IMG/VR virus record: IMGVR_UViG_2537562172_000004
Location: 1-7,251 of that record
Origin: a virus
Lineage: Duplodnaviria; Heunggongvirae; Uroviricota; Caudoviricetes
DNA: 7,251 nucleotides
Strand: one strand, 5' to 3'
A model generated the notes under the pieces. It worked only from the letters and a program-made list of their open reading frames with translations, was not told where the DNA came from and did not search any database. Each line of letters starts with the position of its first letter. Position 1 is the stretch's first letter. Shown in pieces: positions 1-7,251 of the stretch. Both the position numbers and the translations under genes were made by a program.

Positions 1-129
1 CTATTTATCGGAAGGTTTATCTTGCTGCGGTTTGTTGTTGACCATATCGCACAACATAGAGAGCAGCATTAACCGTACTTTAAAGGGAGAATGACTAAAC
101 ACGCGCATACACCTCTTGAACTCATTCAT
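1..129 (-). CDS. Small hypothetical protein (42 aa), possibly a flanking host gene
   Basis: Window begins with cta (TAG on the minus strand). In-frame ATG at 127-129 is preceded on the minus strand by AGGAGG (plus 134-139) with a 4-nt spacer. Next in-frame stop upstream is at 178-180, so the ORF is at most 42 aa. Translation MNEFKRCMRVFSHSPFKVRLMLLSMLCDMVNNKPQQDKPSDK. Below the ORF-track size cutoff; no family recognised. Confidence 0.3.
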   Translation of the reverse strand: MNEFKRCMRVFSHSPFKVRLMLLSMLCDMVNNKPQQDKPSDK

Positions 130-158
130 AAGACCTCCTGACTTGCTAATCCCGTCGA

Positions 159-178
159 TCCTTGAGGGATGATTGCAT
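159..178. repeat. Left copy of imperfect direct repeat (TCCTTGAGGGATGATTGCAT); candidate att core
   Basis: Hand alignment to 6875-6895 (TCCTTGATAGGATTATTGCAT) gives 18 identical positions, 2 mismatches and one 1-nt gap. It lies about 120 bp beyond the int stop, where P2-family att sites sit. Significance not computed. Confidence 0.35.
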
Positions 179-248
179 TACATACAGATATAGCACAGGC
201 TATATTATAAAGCATCAACTATCTACGAAAAACAATAACTTACAGTGT

Positions 249-261
249 TATCAATAAGTTA
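249..261 (+). promoter_or_regulatory. IHF-like site TATCAATAAGTTA (matches WATCAANNNNTTR)
   Basis: Exact match to the IHF consensus in the AT-rich stretch between the candidate att core and the int 3' end. Single consensus matches can occur by chance. Confidence 0.3.
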
Positions 262-296
262 CGTTAGTTAATATCTGTGAGTATTCGGCAGTATTT

Positions 297-1337
297 CTAA
301 GCTGTCGCGACATTTTTGCGACATTTTAAGGGGTTAAGTCGCACGGCATCTTCAAGGTGGCTTGGGGCGAAATGGGCATAACGCATTGTCATAGTGATGT
401 CAGCGTGGCCGAGAATTTTTTGCAGAACCAGAATGTTTCCGCCGTTCATCATAAAGTGGCTGGCAAATGTATGGCGCAGTACATGGGTAAGCTGGCCGGA
501 GGGGAGTTCAATGCCTGCACGTTCCAGAGCAGAGCGGAAAGCGTTGTAGCAGGGCTTGGGGAACAGAGCGCCTTTTGTTTCAGGTAATTCGGACAGAAGT
601 TCATCATCAAGGGGAATTGTTCTGTTGCGCTTCCCTTTGGTTTTGACGAACGTGACTTTACCCCCGGCGATCTGGGAGCTTTTCAGCGTTGCCGCCTCAT
701 TCCACCTTGCGCCGGTAGCAAGGCAGATTTTGACAACTAATTCTAGGTACTTAACTTTACTTCGTTTGCATTCCAGTAAAAGCCGATCAATTTCTTCGGT
801 AGTGAGGAAAGCCATTTCGGTTTCATCAGTACGATACTGTCTGACGTTTTCTAGTGGGTTGGGTGCTGACCATTCACCAATCCGTTTCAGCTCGTTGAAC
901 ATAGCCAGGAAGTAAGCATGTTCAAGGTTCATAGTTTTCGGGGAAACCTTAGATACTCTGTTGGTACGGGCATAATGCCCATCCAGCCTTTTAGCGCGGT
1001 AGGCTGTGAACAACTGGGCATTAAATTCTGTGGCCAGCGGGAATCCCATGCATTCCGCCGCCCAGGTCATAGCATTTTTACGCTTTTCGCCATTGCTCAA
1101 AGCTACGCCGTGGCGTTCATACCACATTGTTATCAGATCTATTAAAGTTCGCTTGTCCTTCCCTTCACCCAGCCACGGAGCTGCGTCTACTTTCTGAAGC
1201 GTATGGTTTTCGAATGCCAGGGCTTCCCCTTTCGTGGCAAATTTTTTACGTATACGCTTCCCGTTCTTGCCATTACTGCGGTTGACGGTGTAGAAGTCGG
1301 CGATCCATTCGCCTGTAGGAAGTTTACGAACGCTCAT
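297..1337 (-). CDS. int: Tyrosine-type site-specific integrase, P2/186 family
   Basis: 346-aa ORF. Tyrosine-recombinase signature is visible in the translation: TGARWNE, then HVLRHTFASHF, then TMRYAHF with the catalytic Tyr. Overall layout resembles P2-family Int. Its ATG (1335-1337) lies 1 nt after the cI stop (TAA-A-ATG on the minus strand), as in the 186 cI-int operon. Confidence 0.93.
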   Translation of the reverse strand: MSVRKLPTGEWIADFYTVNRSNGKNGKRIRKKFATKGEALAFENHTLQKVDAAPWLGEGKDKRTLIDLITMWYERHGVALSNGEKRKNAMTWAAECMGFPLATEFNAQLFTAYRAKRLDGHYARTNRVSKVSPKTMNLEHAYFLAMFNELKRIGEWSAPNPLENVRQYRTDETEMAFLTTEEIDRLLLECKRSKVKYLELVVKICLATGARWNEAATLKSSQIAGGKVTFVKTKGKRNRTIPLDDELLSELPETKGALFPKPCYNAFRSALERAGIELPSGQLTHVLRHTFASHFMMNGGNILVLQKILGHADITMTMRYAHFAPSHLEDAVRLNPLKCRKNVATA

Positions 1338-1338
1338 T

Positions 1339-1920
1339 TTATTTTATCGTCAGAACAACGCGGCCTATGATTTTTATGTCGTCAATTCCGCAATCAAATG
1401 CCATACCAACACCGCTAACTCTGACTTTTCGTACCGGAATCCGTGTAAGAGTGCGGACGCTTGTTTTTCCTTCAACTTCAACCAACCAATCATCGTCATA
1501 AACTTCAGAATAAGACTGGTCAACAATGTACTGAACAAGGCCATCCAGAACACAAATCGGTTGTTGCGGTAAGGGCTTACCAGGCAGGAAGATGACTTTA
1601 TCAAGCATAAGTGTGCCAGCGTCATAGAGTTGGCCATCAACAATCTTGCTGCGCGGTATTTTGAGTATGTCTAATTCATCATCATTAAATTTACGTCCCT
1701 GTCCTGTCGCCAGCCACTCCAGATTAGCGCCTGTTTCGGCTACACATTTCACGACAATGTCTGCCGGGAAAACTCCACGCTTGTAGCGTGAAGAAAGAGA
1801 ACTGGCTGCCATGTCCAGATGTTCCGCGAGCTGTAACTTCTGCGTAAATCCGTAAGCCTCGATCACCCTGTCAAGAATCGGTGTGCTATCTACGTTTAGG
1901 TCGATTTTAAATGTGCTCAT
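1339..1920 (-). CDS. cI: CI-type immunity repressor (coliphage 186 type)
   Basis: 193-aa ORF from the ATG at 1918-1920; the track ORF extends to a GTG at 1960-1962, which would lie inside the promoter/operator region. Size matches 186 CI (192 aa). It sits immediately upstream of and coupled to int, divergent from apl-cII. N-terminal HTH-like segment FTQKLQLAEHLDMAASSLSSRYKRG. No GDSM Ser-Lys autopeptidase motif seen. Confidence 0.8.
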   Translation of the reverse strand: MSTFKIDLNVDSTPILDRVIEAYGFTQKLQLAEHLDMAASSLSSRYKRGVFPADIVVKCVAETGANLEWLATGQGRKFNDDELDILKIPRSKIVDGQLYDAGTLMLDKVIFLPGKPLPQQPICVLDGLVQYIVDQSYSEVYDDDWLVEVEGKTSVRTLTRIPVRKVRVSGVGMAFDCGIDDIKIIGRVVLTIK

Positions 1921-1934
1921 AGCGAATCCATAAG

Positions 1935-1947
1935 TCTCGATTCGAGA
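1935..1947. promoter_or_regulatory. Perfect 13-bp palindrome TCTCGA-T-TCGAGA; candidate repressor operator
   Basis: Seen directly. A degenerate second copy TCTCGA-A-ACGCGA (10 of 13) lies 29 bp to the right at 1964-1976, inside the spacer of the candidate rightward promoter. Confidence 0.45.
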
Positions 1948-1955
1948 AATTAAAA

Positions 1956-1984
1956 TTGACACTTCTCGAAACGCGAATTAATCT
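1956..1984 (+). promoter_or_regulatory. Candidate rightward early promoter (pR-like)
   Basis: Consensus -35 TTGACA at 1956-1961, then a 17-nt spacer to a weak -10 TAATCT at 1979-1984 (alternatively ATTAAT at 1977-1982). Positioned between the cI start and the apl SD. A possible convergent leftward promoter (-35 TTAACC on the minus strand at plus 2033-2038, -10 TATATA near plus 2009-2014) is much less certain. Confidence 0.4.
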
Positions 1985-2055
1985 GGCTCCATATTTCGAA
2001 TGTTGCCTTATATAACCCTGTATTGCCGTACAGGTTAACTTGTGGAGTTTGCCTC

Positions 2056-2277
2056 ATGCGTCCGAACATTACAATCATCATCCCTGAGCCATACCTGCCT
2101 TTAGACGAGTATTGCCGCCGTACTGGTACCAACAAAGAAACCGCCAGGAACCTGATCGAATACGGGAAATTACCTATTAAGCCGAAGGGTAAGCAGAAGA
2201 AAGGCTTGGTCGAAGTCAACATGGCCGCGCTCACTATTCAGGCTTTAAGCGAATGTGACATTTCGCTTAACGCGTAA
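2056..2277 (+). CDS. apl: Apl/Cox-like excisionase and switch regulator
   Basis: 73-aa ORF from ATG 2056, preceded by GGAG at 2044-2047 (8-nt spacer). The track ORF starts at an upstream TTG (2023) with no SD. First gene rightward of the switch. Segment PYLPLDEYCRRTGTNKETARNLIEYGKLP resembles the DNA-binding region of P2 Cox as I recall it. Confidence 0.7.
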   Translation: MRPNITIIIPEPYLPLDEYCRRTGTNKETARNLIEYGKLPIKPKGKQKKGLVEVNMAALTIQALSECDISLNA

Positions 2278-2307
2278 TCCATCCTACGGATTCGGGAGAG
2301 GCAAACA

Positions 2308-2811
2308 ATGTTTGATTACCAGACCTCTAAACATGCGCACTTTGATGCGGCTTGCCGAGCATTTGCAATTGAGCACAATCTTGAAGATGTGGCCGCTGCC
2401 GTTGGTATGAGGCCGCAGATCCTGCGCAACAAACTGAACCCAGCACAACCGCACCGCCTGACCTGTGATGAGCTTTTGGCTATCACGGATTACACCGAAG
2501 ATGCGCGTTTGCTTGATGGGATGTTAGGTCAGATTAACTGCCTTCCATCCGTGCCGGTGAACAATGCCACAGAAGGCAACATGCAGTTGTGCGCACTGAG
2601 TGCCACAGCCAGTGTGGGCGCGATTGCTGGGGAAGCCGTATCAACTGGCTATATGACTGCCGCCCGCCGTACTCAAATTCTGGATCGTGCCCGCGATGCA
2701 ATCCGTAGCTTATCCGTGCTGGCTTATACCGTTGAAAGCCGTATTCACTCTGCGCCTGTTCTGGCTGCGGCGGTGGAGCTGGTCACAACCAACGCCACCG
2801 GCCTGATGTGA
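2308..2811 (+). CDS. cII: CII-like HTH transcriptional activator (186 type)
   Basis: 167-aa ORF; SD GGGAGAGG 6 nt upstream of the ATG. HTH-like segment LEDVAAAVGMRPQILRNKL. Size and position (second gene of the rightward operon) match 186 CII (169 aa). Confidence 0.75.
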   Translation: MFDYQTSKHAHFDAACRAFAIEHNLEDVAAAVGMRPQILRNKLNPAQPHRLTCDELLAITDYTEDARLLDGMLGQINCLPSVPVNNATEGNMQLCALSATASVGAIAGEAVSTGYMTAARRTQILDRARDAIRSLSVLAYTVESRIHSAPVLAAAVELVTTNATGLM

Positions 2812-2820
2812 GGGAACACC

Positions 2821-2994
2821 ATGAAAGCGTTTGTCACTTACCTGAAAAAAGAATCACCAGCCATGCAGTTGCCGAGTGGTTCAACGGGCTGGATAGAACT
2901 GCCAAACGGTCAGCGCTGGAACCCTGGCCACATGTACAAATTCAATGGCCAGCAGCCGCGCCGCCCGTGGTGGCGTCGTCTGATGGGACTATAG
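2821..2994 (+). CDS. Small hypothetical early protein (57 aa)
   Basis: Not in the ORF track. ATG 2821 is preceded by GAGGGAA (2810-2816); stop TAG at 2992-2994. Translation MKAFVTYLKKESPAMQLPSGSTGWIELPNGQRWNPGHMYKFNGQQPRRPWWRRLMGL. Occupies the slot that fil/dhr-type small early genes take in 186; homology not established. Confidence 0.4.
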   Translation: MKAFVTYLKKESPAMQLPSGSTGWIELPNGQRWNPGHMYKFNGQQPRRPWWRRLMGL

Positions 2995-3002
2995 GGGGCG
3001 TT

Positions 3003-3269
3003 ATGGCGATTAGCCAGGAACAGCAAAAGCGCGGGCTGGAGCATTTAAAACAGATCCGCCGCAAATACTTCAACGAAAGCAGCGAGGCCGCTGAATGGTG
3101 GGACAACTTAACACCGGAGTGGCGCGGCGTGGTGCTTCATGCTGCTGCGGTTACTTCTGGTTCCGGGGCATTTAAAGCCCACTTAAGCAAATGTTGCTGG
3201 CGTGAGATTTATGAACGCCTGGGCTATCGGGACATGATTCAACTGCGCCAACGCAGAAACGACCGTTAA
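3003..3269 (+). CDS. Small hypothetical early protein (88 aa)
   Basis: ATG 3003 is preceded by AGGGGG (2993-2998). It is the C-terminal part of track ORF 2808-3269, whose GTG start overlaps the cII stop; I prefer the internal ATG with its SD. Translation begins MAISQEQQKRGLEHLKQIRRKYFNESSEAAEWWDNL. Confidence 0.5.
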   Translation: MAISQEQQKRGLEHLKQIRRKYFNESSEAAEWWDNLTPEWRGVVLHAAAVTSGSGAFKAHLSKCCWREIYERLGYRDMIQLRQRRNDR

Positions 3270-3305
3270 GAATATTGCATTTAACTACATAGTGAGACTC
3301 GCATA

Positions 3306-3893
3306 ATGACTTTTAAAATGAGTGAAACCGATCAAACAGTTACTGTTTATAACCTGCGTTCCGACACGAATGAATTTATTGGTTCAGGTGATGCTTTTAT
3401 TCCTGCGCATACTGGACTGCCAGCCAACTGCACAACAATAAAACCACCGGTAATCAAAGTGGGGTTTGTGGCAATTTTTGATTCAGAGAAGCAAAGATGG
3501 ATTTCCCGTGAGGATCATCGTGGTGAGGTGGTGTTTGATACAGAAAACGGTAATGAACTGGTGATCACCGAGCCAGGTGTTTACCCGGAAGGGACAACCA
3601 CGTTAGCACCGGCTAATGCCTGGCAAAAATGGAATGGTAAGGCGTGGGTGGATGATGCGGAGGCCATGCGAATTGTATTAGTCAGCGAGGCAGACGCCGA
3701 AAAGAAAAGCCTGCTTAAACAGGCCAATGACGCCATTGCCACATTGCAGGATGCCGTTGATTTAGACATGGCAACCGAAGAAGAAGCACTGCTGCTTACC
3801 GCATGGAAAAAATACCGCGTTTTACTGAATCGTATTCAACCGGAAGATGCGCCGGAAATTGTGTGGCCGGAGGTGCCTGGAAATGTGGCGTGA
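3306..3893 (+). CDS. tfa: Tail fibre assembly protein (lambda Tfa / P2 gpG family)
   Basis: 195-aa ORF. The N-terminus MTFKMSETDQTVTVYNLRSDTNEFIGSGDAFIPAHTGLPAN and the C-terminal block LLTAWKKYRVLLNRIQPEDAPEIVWPEVP match the conserved ends of lambda Tfa-family proteins as I recall them. No tail fibre gene precedes it. Confidence 0.85.
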   Translation: MTFKMSETDQTVTVYNLRSDTNEFIGSGDAFIPAHTGLPANCTTIKPPVIKVGFVAIFDSEKQRWISREDHRGEVVFDTENGNELVITEPGVYPEGTTTLAPANAWQKWNGKAWVDDAEAMRIVLVSEADAEKKSLLKQANDAIATLQDAVDLDMATEEEALLLTAWKKYRVLLNRIQPEDAPEIVWPEVPGNVA

Positions 3894-4608
3894 AGCACGT
3901 CTGGCCTTTACGGATTCTGTTGCTGCTCTGAACTGTTCGATCGTCCCTGCGCATCCGTGGATTTATGGGCTGGGACAGCAGACAGCGAATGGGGCATATC
4001 TCAGTCCGGTTAATGCCGTTCGCTATCTTGCTGAACGCCTGGCCGGAACTGGAGGGAATGCGGACGTGGTGATTATGATGGTCACCGGACAGACGCAGGA
4101 AAACTTTATGGTCAGCCTGAATAACCTGGTCGGGATATTCCCCGCCCCGGCATTCACGCAGGTCAAACGGCTGGCGCAATCTGCCGCAGCTCTGGCTATT
4201 GAAAAGATGCAGATCCCTGCGAAATCCGGCGCTGCGTTACCTGCGTCCATTCCGCTGTCTGTACCAACCAGCAGGGTTGCTTTATCTGCTGCGGCAATCA
4301 GCCAGGCACAAAAGGCGGCGGGTGCCGGGTTTGATATCGAAGGGCTGAAAAAACAGCTGGGCGAGTTCACGCAGCTGCGTGACCAGCTTATCAGTGACGT
4401 GGTCAGCGGCCTGAATGATTTACAGGGAAAAAGTGCCAGAGCGTGGGTTTTTACTGCCAGCGGAGACACCGGCACCACGTTACTGGAACTGATGAAGGAC
4501 ATTCCGCAGCAGTCTGCCGTTTACACCGCAGCCATGATGCTGGTTGGTGATAATCTTGATGGAATAAAGGGAATGATTCATGACTTCGATCCCGACACTG
4601 GCGCTTAA
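3883..4608 (+). CDS. Uncharacterised protein A (241 aa), first of a coupled three-gene module
   Basis: ATG 3883 with GGAGGTG at 3869-3875; overlaps the tfa stop by 11 nt. The track start at ATG 3847 has its only purine-rich stretch (GGAAG, 3842-3846) directly abutting the ATG. Globular-looking N-terminal half, Ala-rich C-terminal half (SAAALAIEKMQ, ALSAAAISQAQKAAGAG). No Walker or nuclease motif seen. Confidence 0.7.
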   Translation: MWREARLAFTDSVAALNCSIVPAHPWIYGLGQQTANGAYLSPVNAVRYLAERLAGTGGNADVVIMMVTGQTQENFMVSLNNLVGIFPAPAFTQVKRLAQSAAALAIEKMQIPAKSGAALPASIPLSVPTSRVALSAAAISQAQKAAGAGFDIEGLKKQLGEFTQLRDQLISDVVSGLNDLQGKSARAWVFTASGDTGTTLLELMKDIPQQSAVYTAAMMLVGDNLDGIKGMIHDFDPDTGA

Positions 4609-5125
4609 TGGCGAGGCCATCCAGCTGAAAAACATGCGGGTGACCGTTTCACAGCAGTTTCAGGATAAAGATCAGTCCGGCCAGACCAGCGCCACAACAA
4701 AATCAGAGCAGGGAGCAAAGGGAAAGGAACTGCGGATCAGCGGTGAAATACCTTTTAAACAGCCTGAAATACTGAAGCGTATTTTTGAGCTGGCCAGTGC
4801 TACCGATGCCAGTGGTAATCGTCAGAAGTACCGCGTGGCGCATGAAGTTGCCCGTGCAGTTAATTTTCGTGAAGCAACGTTCAGCGGAATGCTGGATGCG
4901 CCCCAGCAGGACGGGAAAATGTCCTGGCTGGTGACATTCACACTGGCGGAACATATCAGCGTGCAGGAAAAGCGAGAGGCCAGGGCAACAGGTAAGACGA
5001 CCGCAAAAAAACAGACTGCCGGTAGTGCGGGACAGTCCGGTGGCCAGTCTGCCGGAGAGGATGAAGAAAAACTGACGTGGTTTGAACGCAAGGTGCTGAA
5101 GCCCGTCAATGATGCTTTGGGTTAA
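4580..5125 (+). CDS. Uncharacterised protein B (181 aa), low-complexity Gln/Ser/Gly/Thr/Lys-rich segments
   Basis: ATG 4580 with GGGA at 4569-4572; overlaps the end of A by 29 nt in another frame. Two low-complexity stretches (QDKDQSGQTSATTKSEQGAKGKE; ARATGKTTAKKQTAGSAGQSGGQSAGEDEEK) flank a more ordinary core. Confidence 0.7.
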   Translation: MTSIPTLALNGEAIQLKNMRVTVSQQFQDKDQSGQTSATTKSEQGAKGKELRISGEIPFKQPEILKRIFELASATDASGNRQKYRVAHEVARAVNFREATFSGMLDAPQQDGKMSWLVTFTLAEHISVQEKREARATGKTTAKKQTAGSAGQSGGQSAGEDEEKLTWFERKVLKPVNDALG

Positions 5126-5127
5126 TA

Positions 5128-6828
5128 ATGAAACCAGTAAAACGTCTTTACCTTTCAACGGATGAAATTCACCTGGTGGATGCCAGCCTGGTACTGGAGC
5201 TGAACAGCTGCGGTCGGGGCTTCATCACCGCAGAGACAACAACCGATTACACCGGAAAACTGGTGCGGCTGGATGTGGGGTATACCGATCTGCTTTTGCG
5301 CTGGTTTACGGGGTACGTGGAGCGATCGCAGCCCGCAGAAAACGGTTTTCAGCGTCTGTTCATTCGTGAACTGGTAGGTGTGTTTGAAAGGATGTGGCCA
5401 TGTTCGTTTCAGCACCCGACTTTGCGTGAAATTGCGGGCTGGCTGGAAGAAAACAGCGGGATCACGGTCAGTGTGCCTGATGCACAGTACAGCGATACCC
5501 CTATCCCACATTTTACTCATAACGGTACCGGCTATCAGTTGCTGAACAATCTGGGCAGGGCGTTCAGTATCCAGGATTACATCTGGTACCAGTTGCCTGA
5601 TGGTTCGCTTTACGTCGGCGGTGCAGAAAAGTCATTGTTTGCCGGTCGTCCCGTAGAAATCCCGTCAGAGTTCAGCCAGGGGGCTGCTGGTGGTAACTCT
5701 GTGACATTACCAGTGATCCAGACTATGCGGCCAGGGGTGGAGATGAACGGTGAACGCGTGACTAAAGTTCACCTGACTAATGACACGATGGCGATCACAT
5801 GGACGCCGAGAAACCGCGCAACGGGTAAACCTTTGCAGAAAACACCGGCGCAACGGCAGATTGAAAGCCATTACCCGGAACTGGCATCCGGGCTTCATTT
5901 GCCAAAGATGGCCAGAGTCGTGGCGCATTCAGAGCCGGTAAAAAGCGGTAACTTTGCCGATCCCTTCCGTCCACGTTACGCCGTGGACGTGCAGCTGCTT
6001 GACGCAGACGGAAATCCGGACAATCAGACACCTGTTTATTCAGCGGTGCCGCTGCCGGTACCAATGGCCGGGAATGATTCGGGTATGTTTCAGTTTCCGC
6101 CAGAAGGGACGCTGGTTGAGGTTGCATTCACGGGAGGCAGACCGGATAAACCCTTTATCAGGCAGACCCTGCCGGATGGTACCAGCCTGCCGGACGTTAA
6201 ACCCGGTGAGCAATTGCAGCAGCAGCGGGAAGAAGTATGCCAGAGAGTGACGCAGGCTGGAGACTGGGTAAGGCAGACCGATCAGACCATCAGAGAAACA
6301 TCAATGGTGCGAACCGTAAAAGCCGATACAGAACAGCGCGAGCTGGTCAGCCGTGAAACCACGGTGAAAGCCACGGATAAAACCACGGTACTGGGAACCG
6401 CCACACTGCTGGCCGGAGCCATCCAGCATGTAAGCGCCGGTGATTATAGCCAGGCGGTGAAAGGTAACAGGCTGGCCAGCATTGAAGGGAATGACGAAAC
6501 TGAGATAACCGGGAAACAGTCCACTAAGGTGGCGGGAGCCGTAGATGTGGATGTGGGGGGAACCCTGACTGAAAAGATTGCTGCATTACGCAAATCGGTG
6601 GCATCGGGCGGTCAGCAGATTATGGGGCCAACCGTCCATATCGGCAGTGAAAGTGTAAACACGCTGACCATGATGTTGGACACCATTGATTTACTGGCAG
6701 AGCTGGCGCAGCAATGTGCGAGTCATTCGCACCCCAGTGTTGGTACGCCAACCAATGCCGGAGCGTTTACCCGGACGGCGACAAAGGCCGGACAGACCCG
6801 GAGCAAGTACCAGAACATCATTGCCTGA
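5128..6828 (+). CDS. Uncharacterised protein C (566 aa), bipartite with Thr/Gly/Ala/Val-rich C-terminal part
   Basis: ATG 5128 lies 2 nt after the B stop. Long uninterrupted ORF. Ordinary-looking N-terminal ~330 aa; C-terminal part rich in T/G/A/V with an HSH tripeptide near the end (QQCASHSHPSVGTPTNAGAF). No P-loop seen. Confidence 0.8.
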   Translation: MKPVKRLYLSTDEIHLVDASLVLELNSCGRGFITAETTTDYTGKLVRLDVGYTDLLLRWFTGYVERSQPAENGFQRLFIRELVGVFERMWPCSFQHPTLREIAGWLEENSGITVSVPDAQYSDTPIPHFTHNGTGYQLLNNLGRAFSIQDYIWYQLPDGSLYVGGAEKSLFAGRPVEIPSEFSQGAAGGNSVTLPVIQTMRPGVEMNGERVTKVHLTNDTMAITWTPRNRATGKPLQKTPAQRQIESHYPELASGLHLPKMARVVAHSEPVKSGNFADPFRPRYAVDVQLLDADGNPDNQTPVYSAVPLPVPMAGNDSGMFQFPPEGTLVEVAFTGGRPDKPFIRQTLPDGTSLPDVKPGEQLQQQREEVCQRVTQAGDWVRQTDQTIRETSMVRTVKADTEQRELVSRETTVKATDKTTVLGTATLLAGAIQHVSAGDYSQAVKGNRLASIEGNDETEITGKQSTKVAGAVDVDVGGTLTEKIAALRKSVASGGQQIMGPTVHIGSESVNTLTMMLDTIDLLAELAQQCASHSHPSVGTPTNAGAFTRTATKAGQTRSKYQNIIA

Positions 6829-6840
6829 CCATTCCAGACA

Positions 6841-6868
6841 GCCCGCAAAACGCGGGTTTTGTCGTTTT
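6841..6868 (+). terminator. Rho-independent terminator of the rightward operon
   Basis: Stem CCCGC (6842-6846) pairs with GCGGG (6852-6856) around loop AAAAC, followed by TTTTGTCGTTTT. Located 13 nt after the stop of protein C. Confidence 0.75.
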
Positions 6869-6874
6869 CTCAGT

Positions 6875-6895
6875 TCCTTGATAGGATTATTGCAT
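6875..6895. repeat. Right copy of imperfect direct repeat (TCCTTGATAGGATTATTGCAT); candidate att core
   Basis: Partner of 159-178 (18 identities, 2 mismatches, 1 gap by hand). Lies between the operon terminator and the AT-richer downstream gene. Confidence 0.35.
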
Positions 6896-6918
6896 ACTCA
6901 AATGATAGGAATAGGGAT

Positions 6919-7251
6919 ATGAAAAATTTCATTATATTAGCTGTAGGGGCAGCAGTTTCATTTAATGTGTTTGCGGCTGAGGTTGTTTATGTGCCAACAG
7001 ATACGAAGGCTAGTTACACGATTTTAGATAAGACTCGCGACGGCAGCATGGCTACTATAACAACTGAAAGAAAGGGGCCGTCTGGAACATCATATTCAAA
7101 GCGGCTGTACGACTGTACTGCCGGGACAGTTAAATATCTTGGAGACGGTGAGACCATCGAGCAGATGAATAACTCAGCACCAGATCCAAATATGGCCCCT
7201 ATAGTTGACCGCTCAATTGCATACTACATTGGACAAAAAGCCTGCCAGTAA
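6919..7251 (+). CDS. Small secreted (signal-peptide) protein, 110 aa, function unknown
   Basis: ATG 6919 with AGGA at 6907-6910. N-terminus MKNFIILAVGAAVSFNVFA-AEVV has a Lys at position 2, a hydrophobic core and a likely VFA-A cleavage site. Mature part has two Cys (LYDCTAG, QKACQ). Codons look more A/T-rich than the upstream operon by eye. The track's longer form from 6859 would start inside the terminator T-tract. Window ends exactly at its stop. Confidence 0.65.
   Translation: MKNFIILAVGAAVSFNVFAAEVVYVPTDTKASYTILDKTRDGSMATITTERKGPSGTSYSKRLYDCTAGTVKYLGDGETIEQMNNSAPDPNMAPIVDRSIAYYIGQKACQ

Follow-up and report, generated by a model that had tools for sequence, protein, structure and literature searches.

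The window, that is, the whole 7,251-nucleotide stretch of DNA that was analysed, is very probably a cryptic remnant of a 28.9-kb ESSI-2-like prophage (Peduoviridae, Seongnamvirus; P2/186/HP1-type) that arose by an internal deletion of 20,448 bp. The tail genes adjoin the repressor-controlled early genes only through this 20.4-kb deletion, and the element is a prophage remnant; it did not evolve as a satellite or a defence circuit. The deletion, its end points and the identities of the genes are matters of direct observation, and the phenomenon itself is ordinary.

BLAST showed that positions 1-3250 of the window were 99.94% identical (2 mismatches) to locus L004 3932-683, the left end of a prophage in NZ_CP046006, and that positions 3249-7251 were 99.975% identical to locus L003 20001-24003, the right end of that prophage. 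L003 and L004 are one and the same intact 28.9-kb prophage of E. coli 1919D3, located between mntS and mntR. The parent sequence switched sharply at 3249/3250 in the junction alignment, and a three-way alignment placed the deletion junction at 3249-3250, a 2-bp CA microhomology. The total of 3 mismatches in 7.25 kb relative to the intact prophage indicates that the deletion is too recent for the intact reading frames to be informative for or against selection.

The intact prophage and phage ESSI-2 have a common gene order, int-cI-cox-cII-...-rep, then ogr-portal-terminase, then scaffold-capsid-...-sheath-...-tape measure-baseplate J-tail fibre-tfa-A-B-C. The lost segment began at codon 83 of an early gene for a 142-aa protein and ended 18 codons short of the end of the tail fibre gene. 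It included the remaining early operon, with a tR1-like hairpin, dam and the replication endonuclease, as well as the LexA-box/Tum-like module, ogr, the portal, terminase, capsid and lysis genes, and nearly all of the tail genes. Along with the portal, terminase and capsid genes, the adjacent packaging site was presumably lost; P2-type cos sites lie in the rep-ogr-portal region, which the deletion removed. Since the replication, packaging, head, tail and lysis gene set falls in the absent segment, the element was filed as a cryptic remnant and not as a phage.

The junction left a chimeric reading frame and a gene fragment. Alignment of orf88 (3003-3269, + strand) with the intact 142-aa protein showed that it is truncated and consists of 83 codons of the early gene followed by five out-of-frame codons (RRNDR); its match to phrog_33841 was limited to profile positions 4-75 of 138. 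The last ~18 codons of the tail fibre gene remain at 3251-3306 (+ strand), with a stop codon that overlaps the tfa start (TAATG). In the intact prophage the tail fibre coding sequence occupies L003 18481-20058, and its translation ends in AETTVKNIAFNYIVRLA before the stop. A single illegitimate recombination at the 2-bp microhomology would have deleted the 20,448 bp and set the last four genes of the late operon, tfa, A, B and C, together with their native terminator, straight after pR-apl-cII-fil.

The same genes in the same order were present at both ends of the Cronobacter phage ESSI-2, the Escherichia phages ESSI2_ev015, ev129, ev239 and ev040, and the 1919D3 prophage. Nucleotide identity to the window ranged from 95% (ESSI2_ev phages, over 3249-6860) to more than 99.9% (1919D3 prophage), and the window is thus near-identical to, and collinear with, complete members at both ends. 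The group and the window also share the att site between mntS and mntR. Unlike the ESSI-2-like phages, the window is without the central 20.4 kb that carries replication, the SOS/Tum-like module, ogr, head, lysis and most tail genes, and it cannot form a phage.

The chromosomal flank on the left carries the host gene mntS (1-129, - strand), a 42-aa reading frame annotated as mntS at the same place in loci L001-L005 and in K-12. The attL core, GCTATATTATAAAGC, lies at 199-213, and the empty site of K-12 has a single GCTATATTATATAGC. When compared with this empty site, the flanks in L005 split at 5197-5211 (equivalent to window 199-213) and at 13655-13669 (attR, ~1.4 kb past the end of the window), so that the 15-bp core is found at both ends of the element and in one copy in K-12. 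From att to att, the remnant measures 8.46 kb, and its insertion site in E. coli is between mntS and mntR. A tyrosine integrase (297-1337, - strand; PF24624, PF00589; phrog_1) follows attL. Near the right end of the window is a 110-aa signal-peptide reading frame (6919-7251, + strand; phrog_13843), prophage cargo (a moron) within the att-bounded element; it is outside the fused operon and has promoter-like sites of its own at 6859-6887 and 6878-6906. An Rfam scan of the window found no family that reached the gathering score.

The early region has the gene organization of a 186-type switch. The 193-aa CI repressor, encoded full length on the - strand (1339-1920), carries the Phage_CI_repr and Phage_CI_C domains and matched PF07022 (E = 6e-23) and PF16452 (E = 3.5e-31), both end to end. 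Divergent from it, on the + strand, are an apl/cox-like excisionase-repressor gene (2056-2277; phrog_575, E = 1.5e-27), a cII-like activator gene (2308-2811; PF06892, E = 1.8e-46) and a fil-like gene, orf57 (2821-2994; PF10893, E = 3e-10; phrog_7623). The putative pR-like promoter, TTGACA-17-TAATCT (1956-1984, + strand), is flanked or overlapped by TCTCGA-type palindromes at 1935-1977 (inverted repeats I1 and I2, direct repeat D2), which are candidate CI operators, while a possible pL, TTAACC-17-TTATAT (2038-2010), scored poorly.

Phage 186 has a CI with both of these domains and Cox/Apl-like, CII and Fil genes in identical order and orientation. Its pR, TTTACT-17-TATATT, occupies the same place with respect to cI and apl as the pR-like site of the window. 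In 186, pR is covered by three CI sites; the palindromes of the window are candidate operators. The promoter hexamers and operator sequences of the window differ from those of 186, and the leftward pL is only weakly recognisable. From the deletion point on, the window has none of tR1, the replication genes or the Tum module, and the 186 pR operon never runs into tail genes. The statement in the initial annotation that no tum-like or replication gene is present in the window was correct, as both fall within the deleted segment. In the intact relative, a LexA-box-like site (L003 3384-3403) precedes a 68-aa reading frame with 32% identity to the N-terminus of Tum from 186, and this LexA-box/Tum-like module is inside the deletion. 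In the intact phage, the tR1-like hairpin (L003 151-179) occupies the position of tR1 in 186; its fold was no better than that of shuffled sequences (z = -0.5), which makes it weak evidence.

The tfa-A-B-C block comprises the final four genes of the phage structural (late/tail) operon, all on the + strand. The tail fibre assembly gene, tfa (3306-3893), matched PF02413 (E = 1.8e-35) and phrog_105 (E = 6e-83). Gene A (3883-4608; phrog_1677, E = 2e-75) is a conserved tail-operon gene always found between tfa and B in intact prophages and phage ESSI-2. Gene B (4580-5125) encodes a baseplate complex protein of the HP1 ORF34 type (HP1_ORF34; PF25759, E = 4e-54); a PDB sequence search with protein B gave no match, and nothing directly useful was found in the literature on HP1-type baseplates. 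Gene C (5128-6828) encodes a baseplate hub/central spike protein (gp5/gpV-like) that matched phrog_2258, 'baseplate protein' (E = 1e-278), and the beta-helix of T4 gp5 in the PDB (E = 2e-10), with a Gp5_C repeat above the Pfam cut-off and the OB-domain PF04717 just under it. PADLOC defence-system models gave no match for orf88, tfa, A, B, C or the 110-aa reading frame.

The initial annotation had proposed that the block is wired onto the CI-repressed early transcript. The layout on which this was based was confirmed, with gaps of 30 bp (apl-cII), 9 bp (cII-orf57), 8 bp (orf57-orf88) and 36 bp (orf88-tfa), overlaps of 11 nt (tfa/A) and 29 nt (A/B), and a gap of 2 nt between B and C. The sizes were accurate, but the 36 bp before tfa belong to the 3' end of the deleted tail fibre gene and are not a true intergenic gap, and orf88 is the chimeric truncated frame. 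Promoters were scored with our own rough position-weight score and compared with shuffles of 1985-6840. The pR-like site, at 12.9 bits, was the best + strand sigma-70 match in the whole window; it failed a strict consensus scan, its -10 element matching at 3/6 positions, and that scan gave 4 promoter-like sites in the window vs 7.2 expected. No promoter better than chance was found within 1985-6840, in line with the initial annotation: the best + strand sites, 2049-2075 (9.9) and 3292-3319 (9.1; GTGAGA-16-TAAAAT), both fall below the mean maximum of 11.0 (sd 1.6) in the shuffles, 75% of which reached 9.9.

The claim that there is no terminator before 6841-6868 also held. The sole canonical intrinsic terminator, at 6837-6868 on the + strand (hairpin 6837-6863 and a T-run to 6868; -15 kcal/mol, z = -4.0), is the native end of the late operon. 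Five other + strand terminator-like matches (3128, 4265, 4840, 5874 and 6068) are inside reading frames and have broken U-tracts, and their sequences sit within operons that the intact phage must read through. The pR-like promoter beside the intact 186-type cI thus appears to be the only credible upstream sense promoter for tfa-A-B-C, with no good terminator in between. While CI is present the block would be silent; if CI were lost or inactivated, transcription from pR would extend ~4.9 kb across the junction to the terminator. As a prediction from the sequence, a CI-repressed early transcript through tfa-A-B-C stands; as a regulatory design it does not, because the arrangement is the by-product of one 20,448-bp deletion. 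Transcription could plausibly run on from pR into the block, though only by accident. The remnant has lost both ogr, the late activator, and the late promoters, as well as the translational coupling of tfa to the tail fibre gene, and no selected function is expected for the early-late fusion.

The distribution of the junction was examined by exact searches. No copy of the exact junction was present in 5,426 complete E. coli genomes, in one-per-species genomes (185,579 species) or in metagenome contigs; the allele was detected only by exact look-up of the chimeric orf88 protein, which was found on 36 contigs vs 544 for the intact 142-aa protein. The junction is restricted to one allele. Its persistence in a lineage is also explained by plain inheritance. 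Among 24 contigs read around protein A, 18 had the intact operon and 6 this deletion form. The junctions of independent E. coli remnants are not the same, and many of them fall within A, B or C: the fusion is orf::C in Combat13F7 and capsid::C in CUPF12 and PK5, PSJ-16 has a tail gene joined to C, and EcPF15, 300709 and E89 are partial. Strain 573 carries an independent deletion, rep'::'tail fibre, with tfa-A-B-C kept whole; this could hint at retention of the block, although it is a single case, and in at least seven others the break points fall within the block.

Other cryptic prophages have lost an internal segment, among them the P2-like remnants of E. coli K-12; they are att-bounded and retain int, a repressor and a random distal piece. 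Their microhomology junctions leave chimeric reading frames, as in the window, and nothing essential is different. The window stands apart from them in being very young. P4-type satellites and phage-inducible chromosomal islands are likewise small integrated elements with an integrase and a repressor that need the functions of another phage. In contrast to these, the window has no identified capsid-size or helper-activating gene, and the deletion took the region where the packaging site is expected. No primase, helicase or Rep domain occurs in any reading frame of the window, the parental rep was deleted, every reading frame was assigned to an ordinary phage family, and the single allele does not recur, other remnants having other junctions.

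These observations bear on the suggestion that control of tfa-A-B-C by the CI-repressed early promoter is by design, with the block as cargo and the element acting like a satellite or an abortive-infection module that a helper 186-like phage would switch on. The block is indeed collinear with the pR operon with neither promoter nor terminator between them, the element retains intact CI, Int and Apl and both att sites, derepression could come only from an antirepressor in trans as the element's own Tum-like gene is missing, and strain 573 also retains the whole block. However, a chimeric frame and a dangling tail fibre 3' end mark the junction as a plain deletion scar, the parent phage has A, B and C as structural genes of its baseplate and they have no PADLOC match, the replication genes and the expected packaging-site region are gone, no helper-manipulating gene was identified, the genome and metagenome searches failed to find the junction, and the majority of other remnants are cut within the block. 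The suggestion is largely refuted and is now extremely unlikely. We consider it just as improbable that the remnant now serves, through co-option, as an interference module gated by CI, in which a Tum-like antirepressor from a co-resident or infecting homoimmune ESSI-2-like phage would fire pR and produce an excess of Tfa, A, B and C, with Apl, CII and Fil, that poisons or complements the tail assembly of that phage.

It is also very unlikely, if slightly less so, that the block has its own CI-independent promoter, such as GTGAGA-16-TAAAAT or a site outside the sigma-70 consensus. The former matches the consensus at 9/12 positions at the start of tfa, but its score is below the usual level in shuffled sequence, its -10 element falls within tfa codons 3-5, so that the transcript would be without the tfa start, and the identical sequence occurs in the intact phage inside a tightly packed operon. 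The P2 Ogr-type late-promoter motif, TGT-N12-ACA, was not found in 1985-6840, and ogr is deleted; in the intact prophage this motif was neither enriched nor at the expected intergenic regions and is uninformative on the late promoters of this phage. A more substantial possibility, although still doubtful, is that the fusion is transcriptionally inert in practice, with little tfa-C RNA or protein even without CI. Possible causes are Apl feedback on pR, loss of early-operon anti-termination, Rho-dependent polarity after the premature orf88 stop and the lost coupling of tfa. In 186, Apl represses pR and the early-operon terminators are annotated as anti-terminated in early lytic development; moreover, tfa, which starts in the TAATG overlap in the intact phage, is preceded here by 36 untranslated nt whose only ribosome-binding site is a weak one of the GAG type. 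Against this, the untranslated gap is short and unstructured, the tR1-like hairpin was itself deleted and no good intrinsic terminator is left.

The remnant is a clean, datable case of prophage decay, in which one microhomology-mediated deletion joined the early operon to the tail end of the late operon. A deletion can make the genes of a prophage region look like a collinear operon, and intact relatives should be compared before a regulatory interpretation is made. The fusion is of little importance in itself, and the real phenotype of the remnant is likely to be CI-mediated immunity to homoimmune phages. With CI, Int and Apl intact and both att sites in place, the element may still be able to excise and to make its host immune to homoimmune ESSI-2-like phages.

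The window began inside the host gene mntS (1-129, minus strand), followed on the same strand by a tyrosine integrase gene (297-1337) and the gene for a full-length, 186-type CI repressor (1339-1920). The plus strand carried a Cox/Apl-like gene (apl, 2056-2277), cII (2308-2811), the fil-like gene orf57 (2821-2994), orf88 (3003-3269), the tail fibre assembly gene tfa (3306-3893), three ORFs designated A (3883-4608), B (4580-5125) and C (5128-6828), a terminator made up of a hairpin and a T-run (6837-6868), and an ORF of 110 residues with a signal peptide (6919-7251). In complete E. coli genomes, of which 5,426 were searched, 20 kb normally separate the two halves of the window. Positions 1-3250 corresponded, with 2 mismatches, to the left end of the intact prophage of E. 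coli 1919D3 (NZ_CP046006), and positions 3249-7251, with 1 mismatch, to its right end. In a three-way alignment the parent changed abruptly at 3249/3250, on a common CA dinucleotide, and the record coordinates gave 20,448 bp missing relative to the NZ_CP046006 prophage.

The left part of the intact prophage was ordered int-cI-apl-cII-fil-orf142-orf133-DUF2732-dam-replication endonuclease, followed on the opposite strand by ogr, portal and terminase, and then by scaffold, capsid, small terminase, head completion, tail, sheath, lysis, tape measure and baseplate J genes. Its right end comprised the tail fibre gene, tfa, A, B and C, then the 110-aa ORF and an acyltransferase gene, and stopped at mntR. 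The same gene order, again ending tail fibre-tfa-A-B-C, was present in an isolated phage, Cronobacter phage ESSI-2 (Peduoviridae, Seongnamvirus; 28,765 bp), and Escherichia ESSI2_ev phages were 95% identical to window positions 3249-6860. Comparison with the empty site in K-12 defined an att core of 15 bp, GCTATATTATATAGC, in the rybA/mntS-mntR intergenic region. The attL site was located at 199-213 of the window, with one mismatch in the core, and attR at 13655-13669 of the locus carrying the remnant (L005), about 1.4 kb past the window end, so that the att-to-att length was 8,458 bp in the remnant and about 28.9 kb in the parent. The element is a defective remnant of an ESSI-2-like member of the Peduoviridae, a cryptic prophage of a familiar, unremarkable type. 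One metagenome-derived contig (L013) had a second int-cI-apl-cII-... copy at 14873-20726, directly after the right end of the first prophage: a double lysogen in tandem, with the att site in common.

At the junction, orf88 encoded residues 1-83 of a 142-aa early protein followed by RRNDR, five out-of-frame residues from the tail-fibre gene. The spacings given in the initial annotation (30, 9, 8 and 36 bp, with overlaps among tfa, A, B and C) agreed exactly with the ORF coordinates, but the 36 bp before tfa were not intergenic as had been claimed; they are the dead 3' end of the tail-fibre gene, the last ~18 codons of which occupy bases 3251-3306, with a stop that overlaps the tfa start (TAATG). 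B matched the HP1_ORF34 baseplate complex protein (E 4e-54) and C a baseplate protein (phrog_2258, E 1e-278) with a beta-helix of the T4 gp5 type (PDB matches, E 2e-10) and a borderline match to the gpV/VgrG OB-domain. A belonged to an uncharacterised phage family, phrog_1677, and was always found together with tfa and B. A, B and C are structural genes, not cargo. Region 6859-7251 held the 110-aa ORF (phrog_13843, function unknown) along with promoter-like sites of its own 3' of the late-operon terminator; like a hexapeptide acyltransferase gene outside the window, this ORF lies within the att-bounded prophage and is therefore moron-type cargo.

Promoters were ranked by a rough position-weight score made for this analysis and compared with shuffled sequence. 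The pR-like site at 1956-1984 (TTGACA-17-TAATCT) matched the consensus -10 hexamer at only 3/6 positions and so fell below a strict consensus filter; it nevertheless had the top plus-strand score of the entire window, 12.9 bits, and was placed as is pR in phage 186 (TTTACT-17-TATATT). The best plus-strand sites in 1985-6840 scored 9.9 (2049-2075) and 9.1 (3292-3319), under the usual maximum of shuffled sequence (mean 11.0; 75% of shuffles reached 9.9). The hairpin at 6837-6863 had a folding energy of -15 kcal/mol (z -4.0) and was followed by a T-run, while five further plus-strand terminator-like matches all lay within ORFs and had broken U-tracts, and a fold check of the junction region (3255-3320) gave no structure. 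On the shuffle scores and the broken U-tracts, the earlier statement that no convincing promoter or good terminator lies between the pR-like site and the late terminator holds.

The switch region of the remnant is predicted to work like that of coliphage 186. Palindromes of the TCTCGA type around the pR-like site could be operators. The CTGT-N9-CAG pattern had 5 occurrences in the window where 1.0 was expected. At 2018-2033, between the pR-like promoter and apl, a perfect palindrome of 16 bp, CTGTATTGCCGTACAG, fits CTGT-N8-ACAG, the core of E. coli LexA boxes, and falls in the spacer of what may be a leftward pL (TTAACC 2038-2033, TTATAT 2015-2010). The palindrome may function as an Apl or pL element and not as a CI operator, because the sequence flanking it was conserved in the heteroimmune prophage of strain 573. 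This prophage aligned with the window on either side of a segment (L001 5830-5979, window 1830-1998) that spans the N-terminal domain of CI and the pR/operator region, but not across that segment; the alignment indicates a different immunity type inside the same phage group.

The deletion removed a terminator-like hairpin (151-179 of L003, equal to 86-58 of L004, the two loci of the intact prophage) in the 68-bp gap between orf133 and the DUF2732 gene, at the place of tR1 in 186, with a fold no better than that of shuffles. Also lost were dam and the replication genes, ogr, and every head, lysis and tail gene as far as the 3' end of the tail-fibre gene, as well as a LexA-box-like sequence, TACTGTATGTATATCCAGTT (L003 3384-3403), with a promoter-like site ahead of it (3334-3361) and, after it, a 68-aa ORF that lacked annotation (3426-3632; phrog_698) and converges on ogr. 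The encoded protein shared 32% identity with the N-terminus of 186 Tum across 38 residues, and in the intact prophage it probably serves as a short antirepressor under SOS control. The window was correctly described as having no tum-like or replication gene; both were within the deleted segment.

The initial annotation read tfa-A-B-C as part of a single CI-repressed transcript with the regulatory logic of a satellite or abortive-infection cargo. The single transcript is a reasonable structural inference; the regulatory logic was not supported, in view of the deletion, the structural genes and the presence of a single allele. As for phage satellites, the replication module was absent, no helper-manipulating gene was found, the architecture was not recurrent, and the deletion took away the stretch where the packaging site would be expected. 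Defence cargo was likewise rejected, as PADLOC defence-system models gave no match among A, B, C and the other proteins checked. The exact junction was not found in the 5,426 complete E. coli genomes, among 185,579 species represented by one genome each, or in metagenome contigs. The chimeric orf88 protein was encoded on 36 contigs (e.g. E. coli STEC_S1191, protein EGX19954.1) versus 544 for the intact 142-aa protein, and of the contigs read with an exactly matching protein A (24), 18 had the intact tail operon and 6 this deletion form. The junction is thus real and inherited, yet a single allele. Other remnants were independent, with different end points: 1) in strain 573, a truncated rep was joined to 129 bp of the tail fibre gene and tfa-A-B-C was kept, 2) in Combat13F7, an early ORF was fused into C, 3) in PSJ-16, a tail gene was joined to the final 1.1 kb of C, the two matches being adjacent, 4) in CUPF12 and PK5, the capsid gene was joined to C and 5) EcPF15, 300709 and E89 had partial blocks. 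The break points were scattered, the majority inside A, B or C, as neutral decay predicts and unlike selection for a CI-controlled tfa-A-B-C unit. The intact ORFs are no sign of selection: only 3 mismatches in 7.25 kb separate the window from an intact relative, and too little time has passed since the deletion. It is most improbable that the accidental fusion has been co-opted for interference with homoimmune phages.

The analysis established the deletion, the identity of the genes and the lack of signals in between. In the inferred course of events, CI would hold pR off and the entire array would be silent. If CI were lost, or inactivated in trans by a Tum-like antirepressor, transcription from pR would proceed through apl, cII, fil and orf88, cross the junction and stop at the terminator native to the late operon, so that an RNA of ~4.9 kb would result, as originally proposed. 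Expression of tfa may be poor, because the translational coupling to the tail-fibre gene is gone and only a weak ribosome-binding site is left, and transcription may be limited by Apl acting back on pR, a feedback annotated for 186. The products would be unable to build anything alone, since the rest of the baseplate, the tube and the sheath are missing. That the tfa-A-B-C block is effectively inert even once derepressed is conceivable, if rather unlikely. The real phenotype of the remnant is probably CI immunity to homoimmune phages, and the element may still be able to excise, because int, apl and both att sites remain.
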